Positions 2,746 through 48,752 of a stretch of DNA of 48,961 nt are shown here, one piece after another. The notes below the pieces were generated by a model that did not search any database, was not told the DNA's origin, and saw nothing but the letters and a program-made list of their open reading frames with translations. The position numbers and the translations under genes are program-made. Position 1 is the stretch's first letter. The number at the start of each line of letters is the position of its first letter. The stretch is from Candidatus Staskawiczbacteria bacterium RIFOXYC1_FULL_38_18 (GTDB lineage Bacteria > Patescibacteriota > Minisyncoccia > Minisyncoccales > Staskawiczbacteraceae): positions 1 to 48,961 of the forward strand of contig MHPP01000024.1 in NCBI GenBank assembly GCA_001822095.1, in the 5' to 3' direction.

Positions 2746-3012
2746 CTACTTGTTAATTCTTTCCAGCAAAAGCTGTATTTCCCGATGGCCCTTTGCTATT
2801 CTTGCTTTGCTCAGCTTCCATACGGTAAATACGCAAGCGATGCTCAAAGGAAACCCTGTCGCAAAAACGATGACGAGGTAGTTGCTATACCCCAAAATGA
2901 CTGTTGCTGTAATGGTTAACAGCCAAAAGTTCAGACAAATAACCACTGCTTGTTGGACAGCCCTCCTGACCCTGTGGTTGTTTGTTATCCTAGGATGAAA
3001 TGTAATGCGCAT
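2746..3012 (-). CDS. GC1: small hypothetical membrane protein (GC-rich cassette)
   Basis: Internal ATG of track ORF 2746-3084. The product MRITFHPRITNNHRV...VVICLNFWLLTITATVILGYSNYLVIVFATGFPLSIACVF has two TM segments. AAGGGGG lies upstream, and the unit has its own terminator. It is GC-richer than rlmN. Confidence 0.35.
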   Translation of the reverse strand: MRITFHPRITNNHRVRRAVQQAVVICLNFWLLTITATVILGYSNYLVIVFATGFPLSIACVFTVWKLSKARIAKGHREIQLLLERINK

Positions 3013-3056
3013 AACCCCCTTCTTCCTACAAAATGGTAAAGGACGATACATTATTA

Positions 3057-3084
3057 ATGCTATGCTTTGCCATATGAATGTCAA
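3057..3084 (-). promoter_or_regulatory. weak promoter candidate for GC1 (TTGACA-16-TAGCAT)
   Basis: The -35 TTGACA (3084-3079) overlaps the rlmN stop codon. The -10 is poor. Confidence 0.3.
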
Positions 3085-4097
3085 GCTTTTTTACTCTCTG
3101 TGGCAAACTGCCCGCAAGCTGCTTTTATGTCGTCCCCAAACCGATATCTTTGTACAAAATTTATGTTTTCTTTTTCAAGTAGTTTTTTAAAAGCCCCGAC
3201 TCTTTTTGTTTCAGATGGCTCAAACGAGCCGGTCTTGTTGTAAAGTATTAAATTCACAAAATATAGTTTTTTTCGCATCAATTTAGCAAGTTGAACAGCA
3301 CACTCATCAGAATCATTAACATTTTTGATTAAAACATATTCAAACATTACTTTTCTTTTTGTTTTTTTAATATATTCGTCAACTGATTTTAAAATATTTT
3401 TTAGAGAATATGTTTTATTCACAGGCATTAATTCTGTTCTTAGTTTATCGCTTGGCGCGTGCAAAGAAATGGCCAAGTTAAGCTGGAGTCCCTCTTCACT
3501 AAATTTTTTTATTCCCTCAACAATTCCGCAAGTTGAAACAGAAATTGACCTTGCTCCAATATTAAAAAAATCCTTATTATTTAAAATTTTTATTGACTGC
3601 ATTACATTATCGTAATTCAAAAACGGCTCCCCCATTCCCATGAACGTCACGTTCGTGACGTAATTTTTAATTTTAAATTTTAAATTTTTAATATATCTGT
3701 CAAAAAAAATCACCTGTTCTAAAATTTCGCTTGCTGTTAGATTTCTGACAAAACCCATTTTTCCCGTAGCGCAAAATGCGCAATTCATGGGGCATCCCAC
3801 CTGTGAAGAAACGCAAACCGTGTTTCTTCCATCTGCATGCCTCATTAAAACAGATTCTATTTCCAGCCCGTCAAATAATTTTATTTTAGCTTTTATACTA
3901 TTTTTATCTTTTGCCACTAAAATATCCGCTTTAATATCCAACGGGCACTCTTTATTTAATTTATCGCGCAAATCTTTTGTAAAAAAAGTTGCCTCATTCC
4001 AGTCAGAAATGAAGTTTTTAAAAACCGCCTCATTTGCCTGTTTTAAGCGGTATTTCGGCTTGTTTTCAAGTATTTTTTCCAGTTTTGTTATGTCCAT
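3081..4097 (-). CDS. rlmN: 23S rRNA/tRNA adenine-C2 methyltransferase RlmN (radical SAM)
   Basis: 338 aa. Radical-SAM cluster GCPMNCAFCATG, GMGEP motif, and C-terminal conserved Cys (AACGQ). Confidence 0.9.
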   Translation of the reverse strand: MDITKLEKILENKPKYRLKQANEAVFKNFISDWNEATFFTKDLRDKLNKECPLDIKADILVAKDKNSIKAKIKLFDGLEIESVLMRHADGRNTVCVSSQVGCPMNCAFCATGKMGFVRNLTASEILEQVIFFDRYIKNLKFKIKNYVTNVTFMGMGEPFLNYDNVMQSIKILNNKDFFNIGARSISVSTCGIVEGIKKFSEEGLQLNLAISLHAPSDKLRTELMPVNKTYSLKNILKSVDEYIKKTKRKVMFEYVLIKNVNDSDECAVQLAKLMRKKLYFVNLILYNKTGSFEPSETKRVGAFKKLLEKENINFVQRYRFGDDIKAACGQFATESKKA

Positions 4098-4150
4098 TAA
4101 ATTGTTTATAGCCTTTTTTCTTGTTTTATGCCTGCCTGCCGGCTGGCAGG

Positions 4151-4182
4151 CAAAAAAATAAGCGACAGCTGGAGACTGTCGC
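4151..4182 (-). terminator. intrinsic terminator after GC2
   Basis: Stem gcgacag(4162-68)/ctgtcgc(4176-82) followed on the minus strand by T7 (4152-58). A second hairpin gcctgcc-ggct-ggcaggc sits at 4134-4151. Confidence 0.65.
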
Positions 4183-4199
4183 CTTTGGTGTGCTTCTGC

Positions 4200-4499
4200 C
4201 TACGACTGAGTCAAATGGCTATAGTTTTGACGGGTTGCCACCATCAGGAGAAACTCCAGTCTCCGGGCCCCGCCAATCTTAAAGTCGTTGTTACAGCCCT
4301 CCCACAGCTGACCTATTGCGGTAGATGCTGGGGACGAAAAACGAGCTTGAGCCCCGCTTGCAAGTGGGCAAAATGCAAGCGTTACTCCAGTCGTCAATTT
4401 TTTTCTGACCGGCAGAAGGACCCAAAAGCCCCACGCCAAAACCAGAACAGAAAAGAACAACGGGTTGGCTCCAATGAGCCAAACATCTTGCTGGCTCAT
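4200..4499 (-). CDS. GC2: hypothetical small membrane protein (GC-rich cassette)
   Basis: 99 aa with an N-terminal TM (NPLFFSVLVLAWGFWVLL). GGGAGG at 4505-4510 lies 5 nt before the ATG. The unit has its own promoter and terminator on the minus strand. Confidence 0.55.
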   Translation of the reverse strand: MSQQDVWLIGANPLFFSVLVLAWGFWVLLPVRKKLTTGVTLAFCPLASGAQARFSSPASTAIGQLWEGCNNDFKIGGARRLEFLLMVATRQNYSHLTQS

Positions 4500-4542
4500 T
4501 TTTGCCTCCCTTCAAGTTTCAGTTCAGAAACCAGATATTCTT

Positions 4543-4570
4543 ATTATATACAAAATTAATTCTGTGTCAA
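4543..4570 (-). promoter_or_regulatory. consensus sigma70 promoter for GC2 (TTGACA-16-TATAAT)
   Basis: TTGACA at 4570-4565 lies inside the 3-prime end of the LTD gene. TATAAT is at 4548-4543. Confidence 0.6.
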
Positions 4571-5933: not shown

Positions 5934-6467
5934 CTAAGCACAACCGACAGCAGACAGAAGTTCATCGGGAAGCGAAGCCGATAAAATCGCGCAGGACGGC
6001 TTTCTCAACGGCGGAGGCGTGAAACTACAAACCTCTTGAACGTACTCCATTCTCTGGCAAGTCCAGACCTCAAAAAGTAACTCATGCCATGGCTCGGGCA
6101 GGAAAAGGACTCTTGAAATGCTATCGCATGGATTCGGGCTAAACTTAGGTTTTCCCTTTGCGTGCGAATTATACGCCACAGCCCTAAAGCAGTTTCTCCC
6201 CTCTGTGAGCTCGGAGAATAACCCGTCCAAGCTTTTAATTCCCGAAAACCCAATGTCGGCCCAGCTAACATGGATTTCCCTACCTTTTGGCAAAAAGGGC
6301 GTAAAAACAATTCCCCTTTTCCAAGGACTAAGCCTGACACATGTTTCAAGTTTTTTTTCAGCCCCATTAAGAGCAAACCTTGCCTTCAGAAAGACCACTG
6401 CTGTTTCAATCAACTTTGGCAGAGGTATCAGGTTTTGCCTGATTACTTCCAGTTCAGTGGCATTCAT
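5934..6467 (-). CDS. GC3: hypothetical protein (GC-rich cassette)
   Basis: 177 aa. GGAG (6476-79) lies 8 nt before the ATG, and a minus-strand terminator follows. Competing frames 6005-6376(-) and 6118-6474(+) lack such signals. Confidence 0.55.
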   Translation of the reverse strand: MNATELEVIRQNLIPLPKLIETAVVFLKARFALNGAEKKLETCVRLSPWKRGIVFTPFLPKGREIHVSWADIGFSGIKSLDGLFSELTEGRNCFRAVAYNSHAKGKPKFSPNPCDSISRVLFLPEPWHELLFEVWTCQRMEYVQEVCSFTPPPLRKPSCAILSASLPDELLSAVGCA

Positions 6468-6547
6468 GTTTTAAACTCCGTTGGGTTGTAGTGTCCGATA
6501 GCTGTAATTAAAAAGTATTATAAAATAATAAATTATTTATTAAAAAC

Positions 6548-9530: not shown

Positions 9531-9557
9531 AAAAATAATATCAATACTGCCACCCCA

Positions 9558-10323: not shown

Positions 10324-10361
10324 ATTTGTAGTACCTCCTCACCCGTTACAAGGAGCCAAAA

Positions 10362-10664
10362 ATGGCGAAGCTAAAAATGAAAATGGCGATGTTGCTGATT
10401 CCGGCGGACGAAGTCATGAGCGACTTCTGCTACAACTTTGCCCGAACGCTCCTCAAAAAGCTAGTGCGTCTTGTCGCAGAAGACCGCGTATTCAAGGACA
10501 AAGTAGGCTCTCGCGGAAAGCTTACCGATATCGCATACGCAGTACTCCGTGCCCTTAGAAATCAGGTCAACCCTGCTACCGGGACTTCAACGATTTTTGA
10601 CAGAAAGGAGTTTGACGAATTCATGGCAACTGCCGATGAATTCCTCGCCATTTTCGAGGCCTAG
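10362..10664 (+). CDS. GC4: hypothetical protein (GC-rich cassette)
   Basis: 100 aa. AAGGAG at 10350-55, own promoter, and a strong terminator. Confidence 0.55.
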   Translation: MAKLKMKMAMLLIPADEVMSDFCYNFARTLLKKLVRLVAEDRVFKDKVGSRGKLTDIAYAVLRALRNQVNPATGTSTIFDRKEFDEFMATADEFLAIFEA

Positions 10665-13561: not shown

Positions 13562-13870
13562 CTAGTGTACGCTGATTTGGGACTTGTCGTCGATCAAATA
13601 AAAACTATTAAAATTTATTTTCGGGTCACGACACACATGCGCAAGCTCTTCTAACTCCATTTCCCTAAACTCGCATTCGCAGATGTCTATGTCATTTGCC
13701 TCCGCGTAGCCCATAGCAAGTGCTTTAGTATCAAAAACAAAAGGAACCTGACGTTCACCTCCGCAGAGAATCTTACCATTACACAGCATTACTGTGTAAG
13801 GCTTTACATTAATTCTCGTTAAAGGCTTTACGCTACTTTTGACTCTTCTGTGCCCCATCATTTTTTGCAT
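13562..13870 (-). CDS. GC5: hypothetical protein (GC-rich cassette)
   Basis: 102 aa. GGGAGAG at 13875-81, with a consensus promoter and terminator. Confidence 0.6.
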   Translation of the reverse strand: MQKMMGHRRVKSSVKPLTRINVKPYTVMLCNGKILCGGERQVPFVFDTKALAMGYAEANDIDICECEFREMELEELAHVCRDPKINFNSFYLIDDKSQISVH

Positions 13871-13899
13871 TTTTCTCTCCCAGTAAAGGTACTAAAATA

Positions 13900-13928
13900 A
13901 ATATAGCACGGGTTAAATTTAGTGTCAA
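13900..13928 (-). promoter_or_regulatory. sigma70 promoter for GC5 (TTGACA-17-TATATT)
   Basis: TTGACA at 13928-13923 and TATATT at 13905-13900. Confidence 0.65.
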
Positions 13929-13931: not shown

Positions 13932-13960
13932 TTGACATTGAGACTTGTATATGATATAAT
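13932..13960 (+). promoter_or_regulatory. consensus sigma70 promoter for GC6 (TTGACA-17-TGaTATAAT)
   Basis: TTGACA at 13932-37; extended -10 TGATATAAT at 13952-60. Back-to-back with the GC5 promoter. Confidence 0.7.
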
Positions 13961-14016
13961 TAATATATGGGGTGAATTCTAAAATCCCCTTAAAAAATCT
14001 ACAAAGGAGACCTGTA

Positions 14017-14343
14017 ATGTACATCGCGGTTGTGGCGGTTGAGCTGGCCATCATTTGCGTTTGGCAGATCTCTGTAATCTGTCAGCTCAAATGGGAGCTG
14101 GAGGCAAAGGAAAGAGCTGTGTGCAAACCAACTCTGCCCGTTTCTCTGTCTTCTTTTCCCGACGGCACATACCAGCGGGAAGTAGATCCTTACTTAAGGG
14201 TCTACAGAGAGATCCATGACATGAGCGGGCAAGTCATGGTTGGGCAAGCCAATCCTGGAGAGCTCCTATTCCAAAAAATTCTGGTCGAAAAAGGCCAGGT
14301 AATAGGAATTGAGGTTCTTCCCCGCCGACGGAGCCGGCGATAA
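14017..14343 (+). CDS. GC6: hypothetical membrane-anchored protein (GC-rich cassette)
   Basis: Internal ATG of track ORF 13972-14343, preceded by AAGGAGA (14004-10). N-terminal TM MYIAVVAVELAIICVWQISVI and an Arg-rich tail. Confidence 0.55.
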   Translation: MYIAVVAVELAIICVWQISVICQLKWELEAKERAVCKPTLPVSLSSFPDGTYQREVDPYLRVYREIHDMSGQVMVGQANPGELLFQKILVEKGQVIGIEVLPRRRSRR

Positions 14344-14518: not shown

Positions 14519-14544
14519 ATGGAGCCAACGCGGAGGATATCGCA

Positions 14545-14739
14545 ATGGCAATCGTTTTCGAGCGTGTTGACGGTCGGCTGGTGACGGTTCCGCAGATTCT
14601 CGCGCAAGTCGTTGCGCAGACCGACGAGATCGTCAAGAAGCCCAAACACCATGTTAAGGTCGCCCCGGAGCACGCTCCCATGGGAACGCGGTATGGCAAC
14701 CGCGGGGCGGAGAAGAAGCGGATGCTTCAACTCGCCTAG
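14545..14739 (+). CDS. GC7: small hypothetical protein (GC-rich cassette)
   Basis: 64 aa from an in-frame ATG, with GGAGG (14532-36) 8 nt upstream and a plus-strand terminator downstream. The antisense ORFs look like low-complexity artefacts. Confidence 0.35.
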   Translation: MAIVFERVDGRLVTVPQILAQVVAQTDEIVKKPKHHVKVAPEHAPMGTRYGNRGAEKKRMLQLA

Positions 14740-14771
14740 GCCCAGCGACCCACGACGAACAACTACAAGAG

Positions 14772-14805
14772 AGCCCACCACTAACAATGGTGGGCTAAAT
14801 TTTTA
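14772..14805 (+). terminator. intrinsic terminator after GC7
   Basis: 9-bp stem agcccacca/tggtgggct followed by AAATTTTTA. Confidence 0.5.
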
Positions 14806-14866: not shown

Positions 14867-15139
14867 TTAATAGCCCCAAGAAAAAAAATCGTGCGCATCT
14901 TCAAAATCATGAATGTGCCGGCTATAAAATATATTTCCGCGCTGGCACTTTTTGACTCCGGGTTTTCTGCCAAAAACAAGAACGTCCAGCTCGTCTTCTA
15001 CAACCCCCAAGGCGGCAAGAACAACCCCGTCCCCGTTATGGGTTTTTTTCACCCTAACTTCAAATCCCCGGCCAGCTAAGTCTAACGCAACATGGCTTGC
15101 TGCTTGCTTGCCTGCGTTTTTTTCCATAAGAACAATCAT
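14867..15139 (-). CDS. GC8: small hypothetical protein (GC-rich cassette)
   Basis: 90 aa from the internal ATG (MIVLMEKNAGKQ...), with GGGAGG (15145-50) 5 nt upstream. Composition looks alpha/beta. The strand choice is less certain than for other cassettes. Confidence 0.45.
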   Translation of the reverse strand: MIVLMEKNAGKQAASHVALDLAGRGFEVRVKKTHNGDGVVLAALGVVEDELDVLVFGRKPGVKKCQRGNIFYSRHIHDFEDAHDFFSWGY

Positions 15140-15170
15140 GTTTTCCTCCCAAATTTTCAACGAGCAAAAG

Positions 15171-15356: not shown

Positions 15357-15399
15357 TGGTATAATTATTGTTTGACTTTCTATATTGATATGGTATTAT
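15357..15399 (+). promoter_or_regulatory. tandem promoters for GC9: extended -10 TGGTATAAT, then TTGACT-16-TGGTATTAT
   Basis: TGGTATAAT at 15357-65; TTGACT at 15372-77; TGGTATTAT at 15391-99. Confidence 0.6.
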
Positions 15400-15482
15400 T
15401 ATCAATTGCTGAATTTCTCGGCAACCCGCAATGCGGGGCACATTTACATCTCTAAAACCCTTAAAAAGGGAAGGAGACAGTC

Positions 15483-16847
15483 ATGAGTAAACAGAAGGTT
15501 TTGCCGTCTGTAATGGGATTTTACCATGAGGACGGACACGTTCCTGCTTGGAAGCAGACAACAAGGTTCATTGGTAAGGATGGTAGGATTGGGGTTCTCC
15601 CGGACGTTATCGAGGCTCGTCTTGCGACAAAGCCAGGTGAAACGCCTTGGGAAACATATTTTACCACCCTCACTGCCGAGTATCTCGGGTTCAGTAAAGG
15701 GGGCACGAGAATCCTGATTGTGGCACACGGAATCGGACCGATGTCTACACTCGATGGCATTCTCAAGGTCTACAGCTACGAGTTCAAGGACAAGGAACGC
15801 AACAGGCGTGGAGGCAGGATTTCGCATCAGGAATTTCTTGATCTGGAGTCCGGCAAGTACGGAGAAGTTCAGATTGTGGACTTTGATGCTTACTGCCTTC
15901 GCTATCAGTATCCGTTTCTTCAGCATCTACGATCTTCGCAGGCGTTGGTAGATCCTGTGCTCAGGGCTCGGCTTGGTGCACAGGCAGAAAAGTACGTGCA
16001 AACGCACACTGCCTATGCACGGAAATGGCACTGTGAGCAAGCTGACATTGACCCCGAGAATCCTTACAAGCTTCCCAATCACGAGCAGTTTCTCACCAGG
16101 CGGGCTCAACAGCACGCACGGGACGGGGCGGAATACTCCGATCCATTTATTGTCGAGGTCGGAGGACCGGCTAACTGTTGCTATACCTTCGGCCCCGAAC
16201 ACGGACATCGGCCGATCGAAGAAGGTATGGCGTTTGCGCATCTGATTTCCATCGGTGGCCTCTGCAACATGCATCACGAGGGCAATGAAAGCCTCGTGTG
16301 TGATGTGGGTTGCCACGAGTGGTGGAATGGCGTTCGGCTACTGGGCATTCGGAAGAACGCCAAGCTGGATGGAATTCACCAAGGCGCTCGAGCGTACGAT
16401 CTCCTTCGGAAACACTGGAAGTTTCTCATGAAGCCGGTGAAAGAAGTCCAAGTTCACAATGGCTTCTGCCACATTCTTTCAGTGGGAGATTCTTGGTTCA
16501 CGGACTATCCAAAGCAAGGGGCTTCAATGGATAACTGGGAGCCGGAATTCCTTGTGGAGTCTGTCGAGAACGTGGGAACCCCCGTGCTTTTCAAAACGAC
16601 CATCGGAGGCTACCACGGATTCTTCCGATACGACATCAGGGAAATCAAAAGGATTGCTCCGCTGGAAGCGAATGCTTACAGCTTCACGGATGAACCTCAA
16701 TGCATCTGGGAAGGTGGCAATCCGAAGTATCACACAAGGACTGTTCAGTTCCACCGGATCGTCTTCGATCCTTCCCAACGTCTGATTCGGGTCTCGGAAC
16801 TCGTCAACGATTACGAGACGCTGATGGCGCTCGTCGCTAAAGGCTAA
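15483..16847 (+). CDS. GC9: 454-aa hypothetical protein (largest GC-rich cassette), with a Cys/His cluster
   Basis: Long uninterrupted ORF. GGAAGGAGA lies 6 nt before the ATG, and the unit has its own promoters and a strong terminator. I recognise no family motif. Cluster: GGLCNMHHEGNESLVCDVGCHEWW. Confidence 0.8.
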   Translation: MSKQKVLPSVMGFYHEDGHVPAWKQTTRFIGKDGRIGVLPDVIEARLATKPGETPWETYFTTLTAEYLGFSKGGTRILIVAHGIGPMSTLDGILKVYSYEFKDKERNRRGGRISHQEFLDLESGKYGEVQIVDFDAYCLRYQYPFLQHLRSSQALVDPVLRARLGAQAEKYVQTHTAYARKWHCEQADIDPENPYKLPNHEQFLTRRAQQHARDGAEYSDPFIVEVGGPANCCYTFGPEHGHRPIEEGMAFAHLISIGGLCNMHHEGNESLVCDVGCHEWWNGVRLLGIRKNAKLDGIHQGARAYDLLRKHWKFLMKPVKEVQVHNGFCHILSVGDSWFTDYPKQGASMDNWEPEFLVESVENVGTPVLFKTTIGGYHGFFRYDIREIKRIAPLEANAYSFTDEPQCIWEGGNPKYHTRTVQFHRIVFDPSQRLIRVSELVNDYETLMALVAKG

Positions 16848-18279: not shown

Positions 18280-19005
18280 TTAATTGTCTTTATAATGATT
18301 AAACTTATAATTAAATATATCCGACCTTACCGGGCCTATAAAAAAGGTGTAAAGCTCCGACAAAAGGTATTTAATTGTTGTTGTCGCCCATCCGTCTTTT
18401 TTAAACCTTCTGTCCGAAATAAATACTTGCGCCGATCTTATAATGCCAAACTTGCCGTGCTCTGCCGCTCTCGCCCCAAAATCTCTGTCTTCAGATAATT
18501 TTAAGGTTTCGTCGTAGCCCTTTGTTTTATCAAAAAAATCCTTTTTTATTAAAACCCCAATAATGGAATATGGGGTTATCTTTTCCAGCATAACCACCAT
18601 TTTATTGTAAAAGTCCAACATAAAGTGGAATGCGTTTTCTTTTGAAGGGGAATCAAAACAAAAACTTGCAAAATCCAGCTTTCTCAAATTAAATTCTTCC
18701 AAAGATTTCTTCAAAAAATCATCCGGCAAAACAGTGTCGGCGTCCAAAAAAAACATTATTTCTCCTTTTGCAATTTTTGCCCCTGCGTTTCTGCCTCGCG
18801 CGGGCGCTCCGCCCCGTGTTGTTACGCACCCGTACTTTTTTGCAATTTCCAAAGTTTTATCTTTTGAACCTGCGTCAGCCACAATTATCTCGTAATCTTT
18901 AAAATCCTGTTTTTTTATGGACTTCAAAAGCATGGGCAGATAATCTTCTTCGTTTAAGGTTGGAATAATGATACTTAACATATTAAAGTTGTAATTTAAT
19001 TTCAA
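18280..19005 (-). CDS. family-2 glycosyltransferase
   Basis: 241 aa. IIIPTLNEEDYLPMLLKSI ... FLDADT (DxD). Confidence 0.8.
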   Translation of the reverse strand: MKLNYNFNMLSIIIPTLNEEDYLPMLLKSIKKQDFKDYEIIVADAGSKDKTLEIAKKYGCVTTRGGAPARGRNAGAKIAKGEIMFFLDADTVLPDDFLKKSLEEFNLRKLDFASFCFDSPSKENAFHFMLDFYNKMVVMLEKITPYSIIGVLIKKDFFDKTKGYDETLKLSEDRDFGARAAEHGKFGIIRSAQVFISDRRFKKDGWATTTIKYLLSELYTFFIGPVRSDIFNYKFNHYKDN

Positions 19006-19265
19006 ACTTCATCTTGCCCGTTAATTTTTAAAATAATGGCATACAGTAATATTACGAATAGAAAAGAGGTAATATTTCCCAATAAGTTATTAAAAAAATC
19101 CGGCATAAAATAATTTAAATTCAGGATATTAAAATAATTAAGGATATTTACGTTTTTAGACACTATCGCAAAAATAAAAAGAATTACCATGTGAACTATA
19201 GCCGAAAAGAGCATTAACAAAAACAGCGCGTTAAGATATTTATTTTTTACAATTTTTATTTTCAT
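19002..19265 (-). CDS. small integral membrane protein
   Basis: 87 aa with 2-3 TM segments. 4-nt overlap with the downstream GT2 gene. Confidence 0.45.
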   Translation of the reverse strand: MKIKIVKNKYLNALFLLMLFSAIVHMVILFIFAIVSKNVNILNYFNILNLNYFMPDFFNNLLGNITSFLFVILLYAIILKINGQDEV

Positions 19266-19278
19266 TATAAAAATATTT

Positions 19279-20055
19279 TTAATTTAAAAATGAATATTTA
19301 TAAAATTTCATTACCGGCCCCGGGAGATAGGCACCAAACACAAAAATTAAAAACAGCGCAATATCTATGCTGTACCACGCAAGATAAGCGGGGTAGTCTA
19401 AAATTAAAACAAAAATAGTAAGGCTAAGTGTTACAAATTGAAGCGCTGCCAGCTTTGATGCTGTGTAATGTTTTAATATGCTCCGCGCCTCCCATCCGGG
19501 CGCTTTTATTTCAATAATCCTGCGGGAGCACGCAACCGCAAACGCAAAAAATAATACTGCCAAAAGCAAAAAAAATGGTATTCTGGTTGTTACCAGCATA
19601 GCGCCAAGCAAAAATCGCATTGGATGGGTCAGACTGTTGGCGATAATCTCCAAATAAGGCATTTTTTTTGCAATATGGGTATATATTTGATTAACCAAAA
19701 TAAAAAACACGTACAATAAAAATATACTTTTGCCAAAATATAAATAAGCTGCAGCCAGCCCGATAGATATGAGCGTAAAAGCAAAAAAATACGCGGATTG
19801 AACGCTTACCTTTCCTGACGGCAAAGGCCTGTTTTTTTTCTTCGGATGCCTGCGGTCAGATTCAATGTCCGCGATATCGTTTAAAGTGTAAAGTCCGCCG
19901 TACAAACATATGTTGAAGGAAAGGTAAACAATCAATAACGGGCTTATTATTGTATAAACCGGGCCGTCGGCCAATATCAGAGCGCCCAAAATTACAAAAA
20001 TAAACGATATGTGGTATCTAAATTTGATTAAACGGATGTAATGGGCAAAATTCAT
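19279..20055 (-). CDS. UbiA-family polyprenyl-phosphate phosphoribosyl/prenyl transferase
   Basis: 258 aa, polytopic. NDIADIESDRRHPKKKNRPLPSG (NDxxDxxxD motif). Confidence 0.8.
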   Translation of the reverse strand: MNFAHYIRLIKFRYHISFIFVILGALILADGPVYTIISPLLIVYLSFNICLYGGLYTLNDIADIESDRRHPKKKNRPLPSGKVSVQSAYFFAFTLISIGLAAAYLYFGKSIFLLYVFFILVNQIYTHIAKKMPYLEIIANSLTHPMRFLLGAMLVTTRIPFFLLLAVLFFAFAVACSRRIIEIKAPGWEARSILKHYTASKLAALQFVTLSLTIFVLILDYPAYLAWYSIDIALFLIFVFGAYLPGPVMKFYKYSFLN

Positions 20056-20513
20056 TTTATTATATAAAAAACAATTAAAGCTGTTGCCGCGCCTATTAAA
20101 AATCCTGCCAACACGTCTATTGGATGGTGGCGCTTAAGATATATCCTTGAATAACCCACGCAAAGAACAACAAGGACGCAGGCAATAATGGTGGGGGCAT
20201 CTTTATAAAATAAGCTAAACATAACCGCTATTAGCGAAATTCTTGCGCTATGTATGCTGGGGAAGCTGTTTGCGTCTATTTTATTATAAATATTATCCCT
20301 TGCTTGTTCAACCGGCCTTTCCTTGCGGTAGATAATCTTGATAATAACGCAAAACAACTCAACAAATATAAGCGCCCCCAACAGCGGCATGGCAAGCGAG
20401 ACATTAAATTTTAATAAAACTAAAATAATTAAAATATAAAAAACCGGCGAGCCAAAAGAGGTTATTGCGCCGAGTGTGTCGTCCAAAAGATTTTTGTATG
20501 GGCTCATATGCAT
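20052..20513 (-). CDS. PAP2-family phosphatase
   Basis: 153 aa. KERP...SFPSIHS...SRIYLKRHHPIDVLAG (PAP2 motifs). 4-nt overlap with the UbiA gene. Confidence 0.75.
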   Translation of the reverse strand: MHMSPYKNLLDDTLGAITSFGSPVFYILIILVLLKFNVSLAMPLLGALIFVELFCVIIKIIYRKERPVEQARDNIYNKIDANSFPSIHSARISLIAVMFSLFYKDAPTIIACVLVVLCVGYSRIYLKRHHPIDVLAGFLIGAATALIVFYIIK

Positions 20514-20523
20514 TTAATAATTA

Positions 20524-21426: not shown

Positions 21427-21433
21427 AAATTTT

Positions 21434-22315: not shown

Positions 22316-22318
22316 TTT

Positions 22319-23350: not shown

Positions 23351-23354
23351 GATT

Positions 23355-28801: not shown

Positions 28802-28818
28802 TTGTTGTATTATACAAC

Positions 28819-30668: not shown

Positions 30669-30670
30669 AA

Positions 30671-36664: not shown

Positions 36665-37069
36665 TTATTTAATGCTTGATAAATATAAATTTTGTTTTGC
36701 CTCCATTATATTTGCTTGGGCATCTTTTTCGTGGTCATACCCCAATAAATGCAAAATCCCGTGAATAAAAACTTTCATTGTTTCGCTTTTTGCAGATACG
36801 CCGATTTTCCTAGCGTTTTCTTTTACAACATCCGGACAAATCACAATTTCACCTAGATGTTTGGGTTCGTTTAAATTGAATGACAAAACATCCGTTGCTC
36901 TATTTTTCTTCCGGAATTTTTTATTAAGTTTTTTTATCTCCTCTCTGCTGACAAAAACCAGAGATAGCGTTTCCGTTTCTCTATTTTCACCCAATAATAC
37001 TTTTTTTGCAACCTGTGCAAAACTTTTTTTATCCACAATAAACTTGGTAATGTTGTTTATTTCAATCAT
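36665..37069 (-). CDS. ybeY: rRNA maturation endoribonuclease YbeY
   Basis: 134 aa. HGILHLLGYDHE zinc motif. Confidence 0.9.
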   Translation of the reverse strand: MIEINNITKFIVDKKSFAQVAKKVLLGENRETETLSLVFVSREEIKKLNKKFRKKNRATDVLSFNLNEPKHLGEIVICPDVVKENARKIGVSAKSETMKVFIHGILHLLGYDHEKDAQANIMEAKQNLYLSSIK

Positions 37070-37102
37070 TCTTATTATTTTACATCATTTTTGCAAAACA
37101 AA

Positions 37103-37134: not shown

Positions 37135-37554
37135 TCAGGTTGTGTCATGCTCGTGGCCGCAATCTTGGCACTTATTCACGTGCACGCGGTCTTGGCCAAA
37201 AAGCTCCATGCGATTGTGCTTCATTGGGCCTCCGCATTTAAAGCAAACTTGCCATGGGTGGCCCCTTTTTCTCTGCCTGAAAAAATTGCACTTTGCGCAT
37301 TTTTCTCCAACAAAAACTTCCTCCTCTCCTCTTCCTCTGCCGTCCAATCTGCTACAGTAATGTTCGTCGAGCACCATAATTCTTTTGAAATCATGGTCGC
37401 AATCGCTTTGAACTTTTTTTGCCTCCTCAACCAATTCCTGCCTTGCATCGTTAAGGCGCTTGCACAAGTCAAACACCCGTTGGAGCAACTCCAAAACCTC
37501 CGGAGTTTGCGGAAAATCTTCTCTTTTTTCCATCGGCACGATAGCTTGAAACAT
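37135..37554 (-). CDS. GC11: hypothetical zinc-ribbon-type protein (GC-rich cassette)
   Basis: 139 aa. GGGAG lies 6 nt before the ATG. Three CxxC pairs (CAKC, CFKC, CQDC) plus a CDHD/HYC region. Own promoter and terminator. Confidence 0.65.
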   Translation of the reverse strand: MFQAIVPMEKREDFPQTPEVLELLQRVFDLCKRLNDARQELVEEAKKVQSDCDHDFKRIMVLDEHYCSRLDGRGRGEEEVFVGEKCAKCNFFRQRKRGHPWQVCFKCGGPMKHNRMELFGQDRVHVNKCQDCGHEHDTT

Positions 37555-37589
37555 GATTATCTCCCTGTCTTTGTAAAAGGCCTATTATG

Positions 37590-40580: not shown

Positions 40581-41573
40581 CTATCGTTTGCCCGATTGGC
40601 CTTCCAATTCTATGGCCATTTGAGCCAATTTGGCCTGTTCTGTCTCCAGAACTTTCAGCGCGCGTTGTCGATCCGCTTCTTTTTGTTCTTTGCATGACTT
40701 TTCGTACAGTGCTTTTATACGCTTCCGTTCTCTTTCCCTGACTCTGTGCAGAAGAACAACTTGAGCAGCAACCGAACCGCCGAGCACTGCTTCCTGTAAA
40801 CTGGCTGGCTTCCTATAGTTTGAAGAGGAAAAAGCCCTCTCGTGAGGAAAGCTGTAACTCTTGCCCATGGCCAGCTCGACCAGCTTCTTCAAAGATGCCT
40901 CATCCAGTTCCTGAGTGTTCAACCAATTAAGCTCCTTTAATTGGTCTAGAATCTCAATGAACTGCGGTCTAGTAGCAACCAGCCGGTTCCTAACCGACTC
41001 GTCGGTTGTTTCGTTATAGCATCGCTCAGACATTGAACTAAATTTCCATCCGAGCCGGGTAAATTCTCTCATAAACTCTCGCAACATTTCCTGCTGGTGC
41101 CGGATGTTGGCATCTGAGTAAAAAGAGCTGTCGAAGTAATTTTTCCTGTCCGGCCGTAGAAACCACAGGACTTTTTGAAACAGAACATCGTGCTCCAGTA
41201 TCCACCACCACAAAGGGTGGCCTCCGTCCCTTGCCCCGCCATTAAAAAACTTCGCGCAGAGAACGCCAAACGCCTTTTCCGAGATTTTCTGGCGGTTCCT
41301 GGCAATCTCATTATTGTAATCATATTCCTGCCTGTCGTGAAAATCATAACCGCCATCGTAGCCGTTGGCGATATCCAAAAGAAGCGACACTAATTCCGCT
41401 TCCTTCCACCACCACTGCGCCTCCCCGGTCGTCAACAAATGCAACAGTCCGAGCAGGTCGCCAAGCTTTTTGGTTTCCTTCCATTTTGCCATCCACTCCT
41501 CGAGCGAATAAGCGGTTGGCACAAATGTCATCAACGGATGCTTGGCCTTAACAACTCGCGGATCTTGAGACAT
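40581..41573 (-). CDS. GC12: 330-aa hypothetical protein (GC-rich cassette), Trp-rich with a basic coiled-coil tail
   Basis: GAGGAG lies 6 nt before the ATG. Long clean ORF with a C-terminal RVRERERKRIKALYEKSCKEQKEADRQRALKVLETEQAKLAQ. Confidence 0.75.
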   Translation of the reverse strand: MSQDPRVVKAKHPLMTFVPTAYSLEEWMAKWKETKKLGDLLGLLHLLTTGEAQWWWKEAELVSLLLDIANGYDGGYDFHDRQEYDYNNEIARNRQKISEKAFGVLCAKFFNGGARDGGHPLWWWILEHDVLFQKVLWFLRPDRKNYFDSSFYSDANIRHQQEMLREFMREFTRLGWKFSSMSERCYNETTDESVRNRLVATRPQFIEILDQLKELNWLNTQELDEASLKKLVELAMGKSYSFPHERAFSSSNYRKPASLQEAVLGGSVAAQVVLLHRVRERERKRIKALYEKSCKEQKEADRQRALKVLETEQAKLAQMAIELEGQSGKR

Positions 41574-41590
41574 GACACGCTCCTCTCATT

Positions 41591-41620
41591 ATTATGCCCA
41601 GTTACTTAGGGCGTTTTCAA
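41591..41620 (-). promoter_or_regulatory. promoter for GC12 (TTGAAA-18-CATAAT)
   Basis: TTGAAA at 41620-15; CATAAT at 41596-91. An additional TTGACA sits at 41665-60. Confidence 0.5.
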
Positions 41621-44454: not shown

Positions 44455-44865
44455 TTATCGGTTAAAGCAGGGCCGATGCCTCTTCAGCCAGCGACGGCGG
44501 CGCGGACGCCGCCTCCTTTGAGAGCGCTCTTTGCGCTTCAGTGTCGGGGCGACAAGGTCGGTTCTGCCAGCCAACAGCTCCACGAGCTCAAAATGGATTC
44601 CGACGTGGAACTTCTGCGAAAACCTCCACTTGATACTATGGATAGGCTCGGAAGGATCCGCATAGGCGAGAAACTCGCGCTGAGCGGAATCCATGCTACT
44701 CACGTGGCGAAGCACCGCTTTTCTTCGAAACGGCATACAAGATTCCTTCTTGCAAGAAACAGATCGGACAGAAAAGTGCCTCTTCTCTGTCCCGCCAAAA
44801 CGACAAAAAACTAGGATCACCCCCTTTCCCATTTCTTTGCCTTGTTGACAACGAACATATAACAC
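44455..44865 (-). CDS. GC13: hypothetical protein with Arg-rich tail (GC-rich cassette); start uncertain (GTG 44865 or ATG 44832)
   Basis: This is the only >=60-aa minus-strand ORF between a consensus promoter and a strong minus-strand terminator. The SD-proximal ATG (44858) is out of frame. Confidence 0.4.
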   Translation of the reverse strand: MLYVRCQQGKEMGKGVILVFCRFGGTEKRHFSVRSVSCKKESCMPFRRKAVLRHVSSMDSAQREFLAYADPSEPIHSIKWRFSQKFHVGIHFELVELLAGRTDLVAPTLKRKERSQRRRRPRRRRWLKRHRPCFNR

Positions 44866-44901
44866 CTCCCCTCTTTTGCCAAAGGAATGTATTATTAAAA
44901 A

Positions 44902-44930: not shown

Positions 44931-44940
44931 TGTGTAGAAT
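44912..44940 (+). promoter_or_regulatory. pth promoter (TTGAAA-17-TAGAAT), near-leaderless
   Basis: The -10 ends 8 nt before the pth ATG (44949). It interdigitates with the GC13 promoter. Confidence 0.6.
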
Positions 44941-44948
44941 GATTAAAT

Positions 44949-45500
44949 ATGATAATAATAATTGGCCTGGGAAACCCGGGCAAAAAATTTGAAAACACCC
45001 GCCATAACGTTGGCTTTATGGCAATTGATGAATTTGCAAAAAAAAATAATTTTCCTGATTTTGTTTTAAATAAAAAAGCTAATGCATTAATTTCGGAAAA
45101 CAATAAAATTATTTTGGCAAAGCCCCAGACTTTTATGAACGAGTCAGGCAAGGCCGTCCGCGTTTTAACTAAACCCTACATCCTAAACCCTAAACCCTTG
45201 CTTGTTATTGTCCACGACGATATAGACCTAAAAGTCGGCAAAATAAAAATAGTAAAAGAGCGCGGTTCTGCCGGACATAAAGGCGTAGAGTCTATAATTA
45301 AAAATATCGGCAATGAAGGATTAATTAGAATAAGAATTGGAATAGGCGGACAAAATGATGTAAAGGCAATGAAAGTTGTTTTAAAAAAATTCTCAAAAAA
45401 CGAGCAAAAAATAATTAACGGAGTTATTTTCAAAACCACCGATGCGATAGATTCTCTAATAAAAAATGGCCATGAAAAAGCCACGAACGAGTTTAATTAA
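44949..45500 (+). CDS. pth: peptidyl-tRNA hydrolase
   Basis: 183 aa. IIIGLGNPGKKFENTRHNVGF ... HDDIDL ... GHKGVES. Confidence 0.92.
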   Translation: MIIIIGLGNPGKKFENTRHNVGFMAIDEFAKKNNFPDFVLNKKANALISENNKIILAKPQTFMNESGKAVRVLTKPYILNPKPLLVIVHDDIDLKVGKIKIVKERGSAGHKGVESIIKNIGNEGLIRIRIGIGGQNDVKAMKVVLKKFSKNEQKIINGVIFKTTDAIDSLIKNGHEKATNEFN

Positions 45501-45529: not shown

Positions 45530-45655
45530 TAATCTAGCGGTATAAATAGCACCTTAAAATAAGATGCGCGACTTAGGCAATTGAATCCATCTGAAAAAAT
45601 TATGGGTGCAGTTGCGTGGGTCGCGTGTCAATCATCCAAAACATGGAGAGTCGTT

Positions 45656-46174
45656 ATGATCAAGCGCATTTTACTGATGGCGTTGATTATCGCGGCCATG
45701 ACGGCTGTGATGGCATGCTCCTCGGCGGTCGCGCAGGCAAAAAGACCAGCGCAACCATTTGTGGATACCGGGCCAATTTGGCAGGCTATTGCGCAACAGG
45801 AATTGCGGGAACAGCAAGAGTTCAGACTCTGGCAGCAACGCGGAATGACAACTCCCCAGATTTACTCCCAAACGCCAGCGAATCCGGCAAGAATGGCTGC
45901 CCAACTTCAGGCGGCGCGAGTGTGGGCATGGCAGCACAATCTGCCGCCCCCTTCCTCGTTTTCCCAGCAACAGCCAATGGTTGTTTACGACAATCAGCCC
46001 CAGCAAATGGCCCCGCAACAACGAACCCGACCCCAACCGAACGTTGTCCGCTCCGGCCCAAACGCAATGCCGGCAATGGGCTCTTTCATCTACGGCGCAA
46101 ACCGACCTGTGCAGACGTCTGCAAACAGAAATTGGCGGACGCCAACGGGACAGTCCGACCTACGCAAAAAATGA
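45656..46174 (+). CDS. GC14: secreted or lipoprotein-like Gln/Pro-rich hypothetical protein (GC-rich cassette)
   Basis: Internal ATG preceded by GGAGAG (45645-50). Signal peptide MIKRILLMALIIAAMTAVMACSS; Q/P-rich body. A terminator follows. Confidence 0.55.
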   Translation: MIKRILLMALIIAAMTAVMACSSAVAQAKRPAQPFVDTGPIWQAIAQQELREQQEFRLWQQRGMTTPQIYSQTPANPARMAAQLQAARVWAWQHNLPPPSSFSQQQPMVVYDNQPQQMAPQQRTRPQPNVVRSGPNAMPAMGSFIYGANRPVQTSANRNWRTPTGQSDLRKK

Positions 46175-46250: not shown

Positions 46251-46289
46251 GCTATTTTTCAATTTTCTAAGTATCATTATCATATAAAT

Positions 46290-48251
46290 ATGGATAGTTT
46301 GAATCAACTTTTAATAGTTGGAATACACCCCTACTTTTTGGAAAAGGAGGGGTCTTGGTATGCAGAAAATTTGGAAAAATTGCTTGATTCTCGCAATACT
46401 CAAACTTTTTTTGAGGATAACATAATTTTTTTGGAAAAAGACCATAGTTTTAATTTTTCGAGCTTCTTAAGAAAACTGGACGAAATGGGCTATGAAAAAG
46501 TTTTTAAGGTTACAGATCCCGGCGAATTTTCTCAGAAAGGCGGAATAATTGACGTATTCCCCATTAACACAAAAAATGCCGTGAGGCTGGATTTTTTAGG
46601 AAACGAGATTGATGAAATAAAAGTTTTAGATATTTTTGTTGCTGATGAGCAAAAATATAAAAATATTCTATTAAAAAAATTAAAGTCTCAAAAAATATTT
46701 TCTGAATTAAAAGGTCTAAAATCCGGAGACTATCTTGTTCATTTAGACCACGGCATAGGACGATTCTGCGGAATCGAGAAATTCGAAATCCATAATTCAA
46801 AATCAAAAACCGAATATTATGTGCTTGAATACGACAAAGAAGACAAGCTTTATGTCCCTTTGGGTTTGGAAAAAAAATTGTCGCGATACGTTGGTTTTAC
46901 CGATCCAAAAATTTCACGGCTTGGTTCGTCACTTTGGCAAAAAACAAAATATAAAATAAAAGAAGGGGTTGAAAAACTGGCAAAAGATCTTTTAGATCTT
47001 TACGCAAAAAAAGAAATTGTAAAACGCCCCATATATACAGAAGACAAAGAAATTGAGAGCCAATTGAGGGCGGGTTTTATATACGAGGAAACCCCCGACC
47101 AAATGCAGGCGATTGAGGATATTAAAAATGATTTGAGCAAAGAAACTCCAATGGACCGCATTGTTTGCGGAGACGTGGGCTTTGGAAAAACAGAGGTTGC
47201 CCTTCGCGCCGCCCTATTGGTAGCCGTCAATAGCAAACAAACAGCTTTAATTTGCCCAACAACAATTTTGGCAAACCAACATTTTAATAATTTTAAAAAA
47301 AGGTTTGAGAAGCTTCCCGTAAAAATTGCGATGATAACAAGGTTGCAAAACAAAAAAGAGCAGGAAAAAATAGCCGAAGAATTAAAGCAAGGGAAAATAG
47401 ACATTATCATTGGCACGCACAGGCTTTTGTCTCGAGATATAGAATTCAATAATTTACAGCTCTTAATAATTGATGATGAACAAAGATTTGGCGTGAAACA
47501 AAAAGAAAAATTAAGACAGATGAAGGTCAGTCTAGATGTTTTAAGCTTGTCGGCAACCCCTATTCCCCGCACAATTTATTTGGCGATGTCATCTTTCAAA
47601 TCCATCAGTTTGATGCAAACTCCCCCAAAAGGCAGGCTGGCTGTTAAAACAAAAGTTTTAGCATATGACAAAAAAGCAATTAAAAAAGCAATAAATTTAG
47701 AGCTTAAAAGAAAAGGGCAAATCTATTATTTGCACAACAGAATACAAACTATAGAAAAAACTGGGCACGAAATAAAAAAACTTTGCCGTAAAGCAAAAAT
47801 TAGCTTAATCCACGGCAGGATGCCAGAAATCAAATTGATAAAAATAATGGACGACTTCCAAAAAGGAAAAACAAATGTTTTACTGGCAACCACAATAATT
47901 GAAAACGGATTGGATATGCCAAACGTAAATACGATTATTATAGAAGACTCCACACGGCTTGGGCTTTCACAGGCGCATCAGATAAGGGGAAGAGTTGGCA
48001 GAAGCGACAGAGAAAGCTTTGCATATTTTTTCTATGATAAAAAATCCTTAACGCCCATGGCAAACGAAAGATTAAAAGCTCTCCAAGACAGCCAAGAATT
48101 GGGAGCCGGCTACAGAATTGCAATCCGCGACTTGGAGCTCCGTGGAGCAGGAAATATTTTGGGCAGAGAGCAATCTGGCGCCATAAACAAAATCGGGCTT
48201 AATTTATATTCTCAAATTTTAAGCGAGGCAGTTGAGAAGATGCGAGCATAA
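46290..48251 (+). CDS. mfd: transcription-repair coupling factor Mfd, minimal form
   Basis: Start moved to MDSLNQLL (ATG 46290). The track's upstream extension runs through GC14 and its terminator. CarD/TRCF domain GDYLVHLDHGIGRF; helicase motifs GDVGFGKTEVA, DDEQRFGV, QIRGRVGRS. Confidence 0.9.
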   Translation: MDSLNQLLIVGIHPYFLEKEGSWYAENLEKLLDSRNTQTFFEDNIIFLEKDHSFNFSSFLRKLDEMGYEKVFKVTDPGEFSQKGGIIDVFPINTKNAVRLDFLGNEIDEIKVLDIFVADEQKYKNILLKKLKSQKIFSELKGLKSGDYLVHLDHGIGRFCGIEKFEIHNSKSKTEYYVLEYDKEDKLYVPLGLEKKLSRYVGFTDPKISRLGSSLWQKTKYKIKEGVEKLAKDLLDLYAKKEIVKRPIYTEDKEIESQLRAGFIYEETPDQMQAIEDIKNDLSKETPMDRIVCGDVGFGKTEVALRAALLVAVNSKQTALICPTTILANQHFNNFKKRFEKLPVKIAMITRLQNKKEQEKIAEELKQGKIDIIIGTHRLLSRDIEFNNLQLLIIDDEQRFGVKQKEKLRQMKVSLDVLSLSATPIPRTIYLAMSSFKSISLMQTPPKGRLAVKTKVLAYDKKAIKKAINLELKRKGQIYYLHNRIQTIEKTGHEIKKLCRKAKISLIHGRMPEIKLIKIMDDFQKGKTNVLLATTIIENGLDMPNVNTIIIEDSTRLGLSQAHQIRGRVGRSDRESFAYFFYDKKSLTPMANERLKALQDSQELGAGYRIAIRDLELRGAGNILGREQSGAINKIGLNLYSQILSEAVEKMRA

Positions 48252-48275
48252 AAAAAGCGAAGGTGTTTCCTTCGC
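48250..48275 (-). terminator. intrinsic terminator after GC15 (hairpin shared with the mfd 3-prime end)
   Basis: gcgaagg-tgttt-ccttcgc followed on the minus strand by T7. Confidence 0.65.
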
Positions 48276-48295
48276 GCTTTGCCGGATTTCTTCGG

Positions 48296-48709
48296 CTATC
48301 GTTGAGAGTCGCGCGCCCTCGCTTCGTCAAGCAATTTCCACCTTTGGCCCAAATTGCGATCTGGCACGCCAAATAGGATATTGACTTTGCGAACCAAATC
48401 TCGACCTTCTTTCTCGGCTCCTTCCACTGATGCGATTTGTTCAGCACACCACTGTCGCAACTTTCCAAATGTGTCGATGTTAATCGGCACTCGCTTTCCA
48501 ACGGCAACGCCAGACTTTATGGAAAGGACGTAGTGCGTCTTTGACACCATTGTTGCGTACACAAGTTGCAACGTCCCGTCTAAGTGACCTAAGTGCGCTT
48601 CGCAATCGGCACGAGGAAAATTAACCGGGATTTTGTCGCTGTCAGAAAAAGAATCCGCGACAACAAGCGTTTCACCATACATGCTCAGCCGGATCGATTC
48701 AACCGACAT
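48296..48709 (-). CDS. GC15: hypothetical protein (GC-rich cassette)
   Basis: 137 aa from the internal ATG (MSVESIRLSMYGE...), with AAGGAG (48717-22) 7 nt upstream. Own promoter and terminator. Confidence 0.6.
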   Translation of the reverse strand: MSVESIRLSMYGETLVVADSFSDSDKIPVNFPRADCEAHLGHLDGTLQLVYATMVSKTHYVLSIKSGVAVGKRVPINIDTFGKLRQWCAEQIASVEGAEKEGRDLVRKVNILFGVPDRNLGQRWKLLDEARARDSQR

Positions 48710-48752
48710 GGCTTTTCTCCTTGACAATGACCTGTGGTTTAGACCGGTTTTT

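Follow-up and report, generated by a model that had tools for sequence, protein, structure and literature searches.

Leaderless and Shine-Dalgarno (SD)-led genes are known to occur side by side in Actinobacteria, Deinococcus-Thermus and 'group C' of the GeneMarkS-2 classification. In Bacteroidetes-type initiation, the anti-SD sequence of the 16S rRNA exists but plays little part, and a small number of genes have kept an SD that serves regulation. Much of bacterial diversity belongs to Patescibacteria; their ribosomes are reduced, hardly any of them are in culture, and translation start in this radiation is largely undescribed. No description of leaderless initiation in Patescibacteria was found in the literature searched. 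Here we analyze the start signals of genes in a 48,961-nt contig of Candidatus Staskawiczbacteria bacterium RIFOXYC1_FULL_38_18 (MHPP01000024.1, hereafter the window; GC content 38.7%), which, judging by gene content and best relatives, belongs to groundwater Patescibacteria of the Parcubacteria/Paceibacteria type. In the window, strong SD motifs precede about 15 GC-richer single-gene units, below called cassettes, while the AT-rich core genes have none.

The window resembles group C genomes in having a -10 box 6-8 nt before the start of operon-first genes, a strong preference for ATG, and a second, SD-led set of genes; it differs in that the two modes are split perfectly by gene composition and type, and in that operon-internal genes lack SDs as well. 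With Bacteroidetes it shares mostly A-rich, G-poor, SD-less upstream regions and a minority of genes with strong SDs, while the leaderless-type spacing of the -10 box sets it apart. The pattern is a known mix of leaderless and SD-led genes, here partitioned by gene class, in a radiation whose start signals are essentially undescribed. The best explanation, to which we assign a probability of roughly 60%, is that the genes of the window use two native expression architectures, one being an SD-less AT-rich core, and the other, autonomous SD-led GC-richer units.

Start signals of the two gene classes

SD strength was scored as the duplex energy of positions -20..-1 with ACCUCCUU, and 14 clear cassettes were compared with 38 AT-rich core genes, three starts having been corrected and one cassette (2746-3012, minus strand) added. 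All 14 cassettes have SDs of -6.1 to -10.8 kcal/mol (median -8.0), while none of the 38 core genes falls below -3.5 kcal/mol (median +0.6), the difference being highly significant (Fisher p = 5.7e-13, Mann-Whitney p = 2e-8). The cassette motifs are GGAG, GGAGG or AAGGAG, with 4-11 nt, mostly 5-8, between the SD core and the start codon. The two initiation regimes proposed by the first-pass annotation of this DNA, as well as the lack of SDs before core genes, are thus real, and in this window the split matches gene composition perfectly.

GC content at the third codon position (GC3) is 0.43-0.74 in cassettes and 0.23-0.47 in core genes; the values for the three codon positions are 0.57/0.40/0.55 and 0.44/0.33/0.35, respectively, and the upstream 50 nt have GC content of 0.40 and 0.25. 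In core upstream regions (25% GC) G is nearly absent at -11 to -1, and the share of A is 50-63%. Seven genes flanking the window (six in locus L072 of the comparison set and topA in L088), analyzed out of sample, are all AT-rich and SD-less. The only GC-rich exception, an 84-aa gene at 28869-29123, has 51% GC overall, GC3 of 0.40 and no SD; since it combines high overall GC with core-like GC3, GC3 is a better discriminator of the classes than overall GC. This minus-strand gene encodes a secreted Gly/Ala/Val-rich protein and has its own terminator; longest-ORF (open reading frame) calling had merged it into comEC.

Whether SD-like strings simply follow from local GC content had been raised together with the initial proposal. 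From each cassette's own composition, an SD of -6 or lower is expected with a probability of ~0.14 per gene, or 2e-12 jointly; 14% of internal ATGs within cassettes are preceded by an SD-grade site, and likewise ~14% of 20-nt windows reach -6. All SD strings listed in the first-pass annotation are present where stated and on the same strand as the gene that follows, with two amendments. AAGGAG, placed at about 26795-26800, lies at 26796-26801 (26795-26800 reads CAAGGA). GGGGAGG at 44865-44871 exists, but leads to ATG 44858, which opens a 13-codon ORF, the long ORF being in another frame. GGAGG at 14532-14536 is on the plus strand and precedes ATG 14545.

The cassettes share a common anatomy: a sigma-70 promoter, a leader of 25-80 nt with an SD, an ORF, and an intrinsic terminator (a G+C-rich hairpin followed by a T-run). 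Their promoters match the consensus in 10-12 of 12 positions (four of them in 11-12; TTGACA-17-TATAAT), and the distance from the end of the -10 box to the start codon is 29-83 nt. A terminator is present after every cassette, and promoter, SD and terminator have the same orientation; by these signals, each cassette appears to be a self-contained monocistronic unit. The cassettes are as follows.

2746..3026 (-): c88, 88-aa two-transmembrane protein 2746-3012; SD GGAAGAAGGGGG 3015-3026, dG -10.8; promoter TTGACA-16-TAGCAT 3057-3084; terminator hairpin just below 2746
4200..4570 (-): c99, 99-aa membrane protein 4200-4499; SD GGGAGG 4505-4510; consensus promoter TTGACA-16-TATAAT 4543-4570; terminator 4160-4184
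5934..6479 (-): c177, 177-aa ORF 5934-6467; SD GGAG 6476-6479; terminator 5890-5906
10350..10664 (+): c100, 100-aa ORF 10362-10664; SD AAGGAG 10350-10355; within the strain-variable indel 9496-10752
13562..13928 (-): c102, 102-aa ORF 13562-13870; SD GGGAGAG 13875-13881; promoter TTGACA-17-TATATT 13900-13928; terminator 13537-13563
13932..14343 (+): c108, 108-aa membrane protein 14017-14343; perfect promoter TTGACA-17-TATAAT 13932-13960; SD AAGGAGA 14004-14010
14532..14796 (+): c64, 64-aa ORF 14545-14739; SD GGAGG 14532-14536; terminator 14772-14796
14867..15150 (-): c90, 90-aa ORF 14867-15139; SD GGGAGG 15145-15150; terminator 14839-14855
15372..16847 (+): c454, 454-aa ORF 15483-16847; promoter TTGACT-16-TATTAT 15372-15399; structured leader of ~77 nt; SD 15469-15477
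26796..27241 (+): c143, 143-aa ORF from GTG 26810; SD AAGGAG 26796-26801; terminator 3' of the gene
37135..37565 (-): c139, 139-aa Cys-rich (CxxC) protein 37135-37554; SD GGGAG 37561-37565
40581..41612 (-): c330, 330-aa all-helical protein 40581-41573; SD GAGGAG 41580-41585; palindrome GCCCTAAGTAACTGGGC 41596-41612, then CATAAT
44455..44871 (-): c136?, ambiguous; SD GGGGAGG 44865-44871; ATG 44858 with a 13-codon ORF 44817-44858
45645..46174 (+): c172, 172-aa Q/P-rich putative lipoprotein 45656-46174; SD GGAGAG 45645-45650; terminator 3' of the gene
48296..48722 (-): c137, 137-aa ORF 48296-48709; SD AAGGAG 48717-48722; terminator 3' of the gene

By sequence features, c88, c99, c108 and c172 look like membrane or secreted proteins. 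Comparison of the cassettes with Pfam, PHROGs and PADLOC yielded no family, with one sub-threshold match, to the ferredoxin-like domain of DAHP synthase (c90). The least secure gene call of the set is c64, for which public calls also use TTG 14467 (90 aa). The terminator region of c64 (14796-14828) forms a 33-nt inverted repeat, 85% complementary, with 38133-38165 within the lipase-like gene. In the case of c136?, the 13-codon ORF stops inside a GC-rich 136-aa ORF (44455-44865, GTG start) in another frame, so that it is a leader peptide or else a gene with a frameshift; its SD is the strongest in the window, and one public pipeline calls no gene there. Public calls differ between assemblies at several places: an opposite-strand 143-aa ORF 4128-4559 is called instead of c99, htrA (16918-18261) has 410 or 447 aa, and c64 (14467-14739) 64 or 90 aa. 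Such disagreement in or near the GC-rich islands probably reflects single-model gene finders.

The start regions of core genes are organised differently, as illustrated by four genes.

28799..28814 (-): comEC, TATAAT 28809-28814, 7 nt, ATG 28801; no SD
37067..37082 (-): ybeY, TAAAAT 37077-37082, 7 nt, ATG 37069; no SD
44935..44951 (+): pth, TAGAAT 44935-44940, 8 nt, ATG 44949; no SD
46278..46292 (+): mfd, TATCAT 46278-46283, 6 nt, ATG 46290; no SD

The gap between the -10 box and ATG is 9 nt in clpB and lepB, a sigma-factor gene also falls into the 6-9 nt group, and a few other core first genes have gaps of 15-17 nt, i.e. short leaders. The start codon is ATG in 37 of 38 core genes. As the -10 box is so near to ATG, the mRNAs should be leaderless or have a very short, G-poor, A-rich leader. 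The first-pass annotation had suggested leaderless or near-leaderless core mRNAs, with which the gaps of 6-9 nt, the prevalence of ATG and the data on related loci (see below) are consistent. Among its examples, the -10 box of pth was located exactly, the one of comEC correctly, but with a spacing of 9 instead of 7 nt, while for mfd a -10 box close to ATG 46290 indeed exists, TATCAT being a better candidate than the proposed one.

Genes inside core operons are SD-less too. In the operon listed below (18280..26692) they are spaced by -4 to +20 nt with A/T-rich junctions, so that translation within the operon is presumably coupled.

Comparison with about 55 related Patescibacteria loci, where automatic gene calls are noisy in GC-rich islands, gives a consistent picture. 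Among SD-less first genes of these loci, a -10-like hexamer is found exactly 6 nt upstream in 35 of 351 cases, forming a sharp peak, while SD-led genes of the same loci have no -10 peak at gap 6. Judged by motif position alone, this peak would be the classical leaderless signature. The same spacing is plain in single loci (L015, L016 and L017). The fraction of SD-led genes across related loci is 14-23%, a rough figure given the noisy automatic gene caller.

Taken together, AT-rich housekeeping genes (GC3 0.23-0.47) would be translated without an SD, operon-first genes having a -10 box 6-9, sometimes up to 17 nt before ATG, and downstream genes, at -4 to +20 nt, fitting coupling or re-initiation. 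The ~15 GC-richer genes (GC3 0.43-0.74) would be expressed as monocistronic units with a near-consensus sigma-70 promoter, a 25-80 nt leader, an SD and a terminator; their products would be radiation-specific or lineage-specific proteins without assigned function, several of them membrane or secreted. In our interpretation, cassettes carry SDs because a real 5' leader lets 30S-type initiation and regulation act, as in the c454 family, whose leader is predicted to sequester the SD by means of a conserved hairpin and a pyrimidine box. Both the leaderless transcription starts and a working anti-SD in the 16S of this organism are what we infer from sequence.

The map of the core is based on public gene calls and Pfam hits.

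Core genes: clpB, htrA, the glycosyltransferase/lipid-carrier operon with prs, comEC, an nrdG-type radical-SAM gene, nrdD, an MvaI/BcnI-type restriction-modification pair, ftsZ, ftsA, ybeY, an 806-aa lipase-like gene, yqeY, rpsU, hisS, lepB, pth, mfd, and two sigma-factor/DUF5667 pairs
18280..26692 (-): core operon without SDs (DUF6938, GT4, orf335, acyltransferase, prs, orf300, PAP2, UbiA, orf87, GT2)

The gene initially labelled rlmN has radical-SAM and Fer4_12 domains and adjoins nrdD, and we read it as an nrdG-type activase instead. The restriction-modification pair (29970-31966, minus strand), comprising an N6/N4 methyltransferase and the endonuclease, is SD-less and has the lowest GC3 of the window (0.23-0.24); by composition, it appears to be the most foreign-looking element of the core class, in the AT direction. 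A tRNA scan of the window found none, and Rfam at the gathering threshold yielded nothing relevant over the whole window, which contains no rRNA gene; the sequence beyond its ends includes a cell-surface/glycosylation gene cluster and topA, and no rRNA. Matches with >99.5% identity are contigs of the Rifle aquifer metagenome, assembly GCA_001822165.1 (contig MHPX01000016.1), and a 137-kb ENA scaffold; the strains compared (>99.5% identical) are too close for dN/dS.

Conserved leaders of the c454 and c330 families

More than 340 homologs of c454, with 50-85% identity, are spread over Patescibacteria; 54 loci are in named genomes (Yanofsky-, Vogel-, Falkow-, Levy-, Collier-, Moran-, Komeili-, Kerfeld- and Uhr-bacteria, and Saccharimonadia). 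The titles of a few homolog records name other phyla, which are likely binning labels. The protein is 56% identical to its counterpart in L016, compared to 53% for FtsZ and 41% for HisS between the same genomes, and 52% identical to the one of a Levybacterium, compared to 28% for HisS. The genomic context of c454 differs in every genome examined, the gene always being a single-gene unit, and an SD of -6 or better is retained in 43 of 51 lineages.

GC3 of c454 follows the one of neighbouring genes (c454 GC3 = 1.00 x neighbour GC3 + 0.136, r = 0.76), exceeding it in 35 of 36 loci. As it tracks host GC content at a constant offset, c454 should be a long-term resident with a gene-specific bias and not a recent import. 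The GC excess thus behaves as an intrinsic, long-standing property of the gene, rather than a trace of recent import from outside the radiation.

The leader of c454 (15406-15482) is organised as promoter, variable hairpin, YCCU pyrimidine box, AAAA, a covarying hairpin of 3-4 bp with an A-rich loop, and AAAGGAG. Across homologs, the motif of 33 nt before the SD reads YCCU-AAAA-hairpin-AAAGGAG, and in the window, YCCU-AAAA-hairpin-AAGGAG (15448-15480). A covariance model built from 16 sequences in a hand-anchored alignment located 49 instances of the motif in 978 kb, each of them directly 5' of a c454 homolog (e.g. L019:164-196 and L015:9964-9996), with two weak off-target matches only. All four pairs of the hairpin covary, 95% of cells are paired, and none of 500 shuffles reaches the observed score. 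RNAalifold detected only the variable upstream hairpin; the SD-adjacent one emerged from the hand-anchored alignment and the covariance model.

In the predicted fold of the window leader, UCUCU pairs with GGAGA, so that the SD would be sequestered (z = -2.8). The outer pairing of the SD with the pyrimidine box lacks partner-specific covariation, the 4-bp hairpin alone being supported. We consider the leader a candidate SD-sequestering riboregulator, predicted from its fold and specific to the c454 protein family. In having a conserved hairpin immediately 5' of the SD and a pyrimidine box as the predicted pairing partner of the SD, the leader resembles riboswitches and RNA thermometers that sequester the SD; unlike them, it matches no Rfam family at the E-value threshold, and the covariation is limited to the 4-bp hairpin.

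The structure model of c454 has pLDDT of 83, and its C-terminal half resembles the C-type-lectin fold of AvpA, a nanoarchaeal variable protein of a diversity-generating retroelement (DGR; 5ioo_A, E = 8.5e-8). Considered as a DGR target, c454 was rejected: the window has no template/variable repeat pair (TR/VR) or reverse transcriptase, and the C-terminus is conserved, not variable.

The c330 family comprises 369 cluster representatives at E <= 1e-3. As for c454, the homologs are GC-richer than their own loci (0.41-0.51 vs 0.34-0.43) and retain AAAGGAG. Moreover, before c330-family genes (L076-L086) with protein identity of only 39-54%, the palindrome GCCCTAAATAACTGGGC is conserved in sequence, with CATAA(T) and then the SD after it. 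The palindrome could be an operator in the spacer of the promoter (in the window, TTGAAA-18-CATAAT) or else form a hairpin in the RNA. The all-helical model of c330 (pLDDT ~82) has no match in PDB. Scans of viral contigs found no relatives of c454 or c330. Their distribution and conserved elements suggest that both are old, radiation-wide families, not recent foreign imports, and that the SD in these two families is a native signal, selected within the radiation.

Other cassettes are more restricted. c139 was found only in this species, and no donor was found for it. A segment of 1.26 kb (9496-10752), containing c100 and an AT-rich PaaX-like gene, is absent from one strain (ENA scaffold_72). 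The PaaX-like gene beside c100 is flanked by 54-nt direct repeats (9559-9612 and 10237-10290, 89% identical), and the arrangement suggests a small mobile or recombining unit. The cassettes outside the large-database searches (see below) had no tblastn matches in the comparison loci.

Origin of the GC-richer units and reading of their SDs

Several observations weigh against two native architectures. The GC shift of cassettes extends over all three codon positions and is seen in G-ending as well as C-ending codons, which also resembles a distinct mutational history. Beyond this genome, genes with SDs, c454 homologs excluded, are only 2-4 points richer in GC3; as the link is that weak elsewhere, the perfect coupling is a property of this genome and a few others (L015, L078, L086), rather than of the whole radiation. 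Searches in large protein databases covered three of the 15 cassettes (c454, c139 and c330), of which c139 is species-restricted, and c100 is strain-variable. Leaderless status and transcription starts rest on motif positions, the sequence having been found in DNA runs only. The 16S gene of this genome was not found: motif searches of all loci retrieved 16S only in L086 and L085. In L086, the RNA after helix 45 reads GGAUCA-UUUUUUUU (GGATCA-TTTTTTTTAAAAATG in DNA) and contains no CCTCC.

The first-pass annotation had taken the cassettes for foreign genes with expression signals of an SD-dependent background. Recent horizontal import from beyond the radiation, with the ribosome-binding sites and codon usage of an SD-dependent donor of higher GC content kept, would explain why GC content is raised at all codon positions and in the noncoding flanks (see the values above), and is in line with the restricted distribution of c139 and c100 and with the location of cassettes between core genes that are adjacent in the syntenic relative L016. 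Foreign DNA is usually AT-richer than its host. Like horizontally acquired islets, the cassettes have composition and codon usage different from those of the core and lie at boundaries of core operons, one being strain-variable and one species-restricted; unlike them, they are GC-richer than the host, have no mobility genes or boundary repeats, and include two families that are ancient residents of the radiation tracking host GC. Indeed, homologs of c454 and c330 occur by the hundreds in Patescibacteria contigs, where the SDs and leader elements are conserved, the GC3 offset of c454 follows host GC with a slope of 1.0, and neither viral, PHROG or PADLOC relatives nor, among the inspected homologs with a named source, any from outside Patescibacteria were seen. 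No integrase, transposase or shared repeats flank the cassettes, with the sole exception of the 54-nt repeats by the PaaX-like gene. Import as a general explanation is therefore unlikely: the data contradict it for c454 and c330; some cassettes, such as the species-restricted and strain-variable ones, may be recent gains, yet nothing points to a donor beyond the radiation. A variant with somewhat better, though still modest, prospects is a 'plug-and-play' pool exchanged horizontally within Patescibacteria, e.g. by natural transformation; as each unit would travel with its own promoter, SD and terminator, the signals of cassettes would differ from those of the operon-embedded core. The changing context of single-gene c454, its conservation exceeding that of FtsZ and HisS, the strain-level gain or loss of c100, the presence of comEC in the window, and atypical composition spanning whole units all agree with such exchange, while the GC3 slope of 1.0 points to long-term residence in the individual hosts, against frequent transfer among hosts of different GC content, and integrases, transposases and common boundary repeats are missing here as well. 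Integron gene cassettes were also considered and rejected, since the units are dispersed, lie in both orientations, have their own promoters and terminators, and are accompanied by neither intI nor a shared attC-like repeat. Finally, in GC-rich islands, ORFs of the two strands overlap (for instance, 4128-4559 on the plus strand was called by a public pipeline in place of 4200-4499 on the minus strand), and the calls of c64 and c136? are uncertain, so that one might suspect spurious small ORFs in GC-rich noncoding DNA preceded by SD-like strings arising from GC- or purine-richer sequence. This is highly improbable and is rejected for the set as a whole, as the joint chance of such SDs is negligible (2e-12, see above), the motif is always correctly spaced before the first ATG of an ORF with promoter and terminator in the same orientation, and two cassettes are backed by hundreds of homologs and by structure models of good confidence (pLDDT ~82).

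What reads the SDs of cassettes is a separate question. The canonical 16S tail with the anti-SD is ...GAUCACCUCCUUA. Only 48% of the 16S genes of Parcubacteria were found to carry the anti-SD motif (Tsurumaki et al. 2022, RNA; PMC9297842); SD helices are inferred there not to form in anti-SD-less lineages, and the part of that paper available to us does not mention a retained class of SD-led genes. The system considered here belongs to the same phylum-level group, and L086, with GGAUCA followed by U8 and no CCUCC, is a case of just this kind; what differs is that SD-led genes are prominent here and, in L086, coexist with an anti-SD-less 16S. L086 is a 104-kb contig from the same aquifer, coming from a different organism; its 16S gene (342-2120; also in L085) has an insertion of ~1 kb and is followed by a tRNA. 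Logan contigs covering the L086 16S are too fragmented for assignment to an organism, one contig of the internal transcribed spacer (ITS) having a depth ~2.2x that of the window in all four runs. The same two classes are observed in L086, with AT-rich SD-less genes and two GC-rich genes having AGGAG 8 nt before the start. Moreover, TCTCCTTA (UCUCCUUA in RNA) occurs ~130 nt past helix 45, in a hairpin with AGGAGA, because of which the mature 3' end of the L086 16S is uncertain.

If the 16S of our organism had also lost the anti-SD, the purine-rich motifs would be elements of RNA structure or protein binding, or would be read by an unconventional rRNA 3' end. The frequency of anti-SD loss in Parcubacteria quoted above, the L086 16S ending in GGAUCAUUUUUUUU despite its two AGGAG-led genes, and the predicted pairing of the SD with the conserved pyrimidine box in the c454 leader speak for this. 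However, 14 unrelated genes share the motif at the optimal spacing of 4-11 nt, as selection by an anti-SD predicts, the L086 organism is a different one, whose c330 homolog is just 39% identical, and UCUCCUUA leaves the end of its mature 16S uncertain; we therefore regard the loss as improbable. A related and speculative idea, to which we give little weight, is that in anti-SD-less Parcubacteria, such as L086, the conserved GC-rich class keeps optimal SDs for a second, unconventional reader, making two separate translation channels. Candidate readers are the anti-SD-like UCUCCUUA, which an intervening sequence would have moved ~130 nt past helix 45, a heterogeneous ribosome population, and a dedicated factor. 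If true, minimal cells would combine leaderless 70S-type initiation for the core with a specialised SD channel for radiation-specific genes.

Implications for Patescibacteria

Whichever molecule reads the SDs, the anti-SD loss reported for about half of Parcubacteria (PMC9297842) now meets a concrete question, namely, which factor does so. The data have a practical side, since gene callers with a single model of the ribosome-binding site and of composition mis-call starts and strands here, as seen for 4128-4559, htrA, comEC and c64. Furthermore, two large uncharacterised families, c454 and c330, are flagged with conserved cis-elements and hence are testable.

More generally, the window, together with the data on about 55 related loci, suggests that housekeeping genes of Patescibacteria by default use leaderless or SD-less initiation, while canonical SDs may be reserved for distinct autonomous, GC-richer, radiation-specific genes with regulated leaders.

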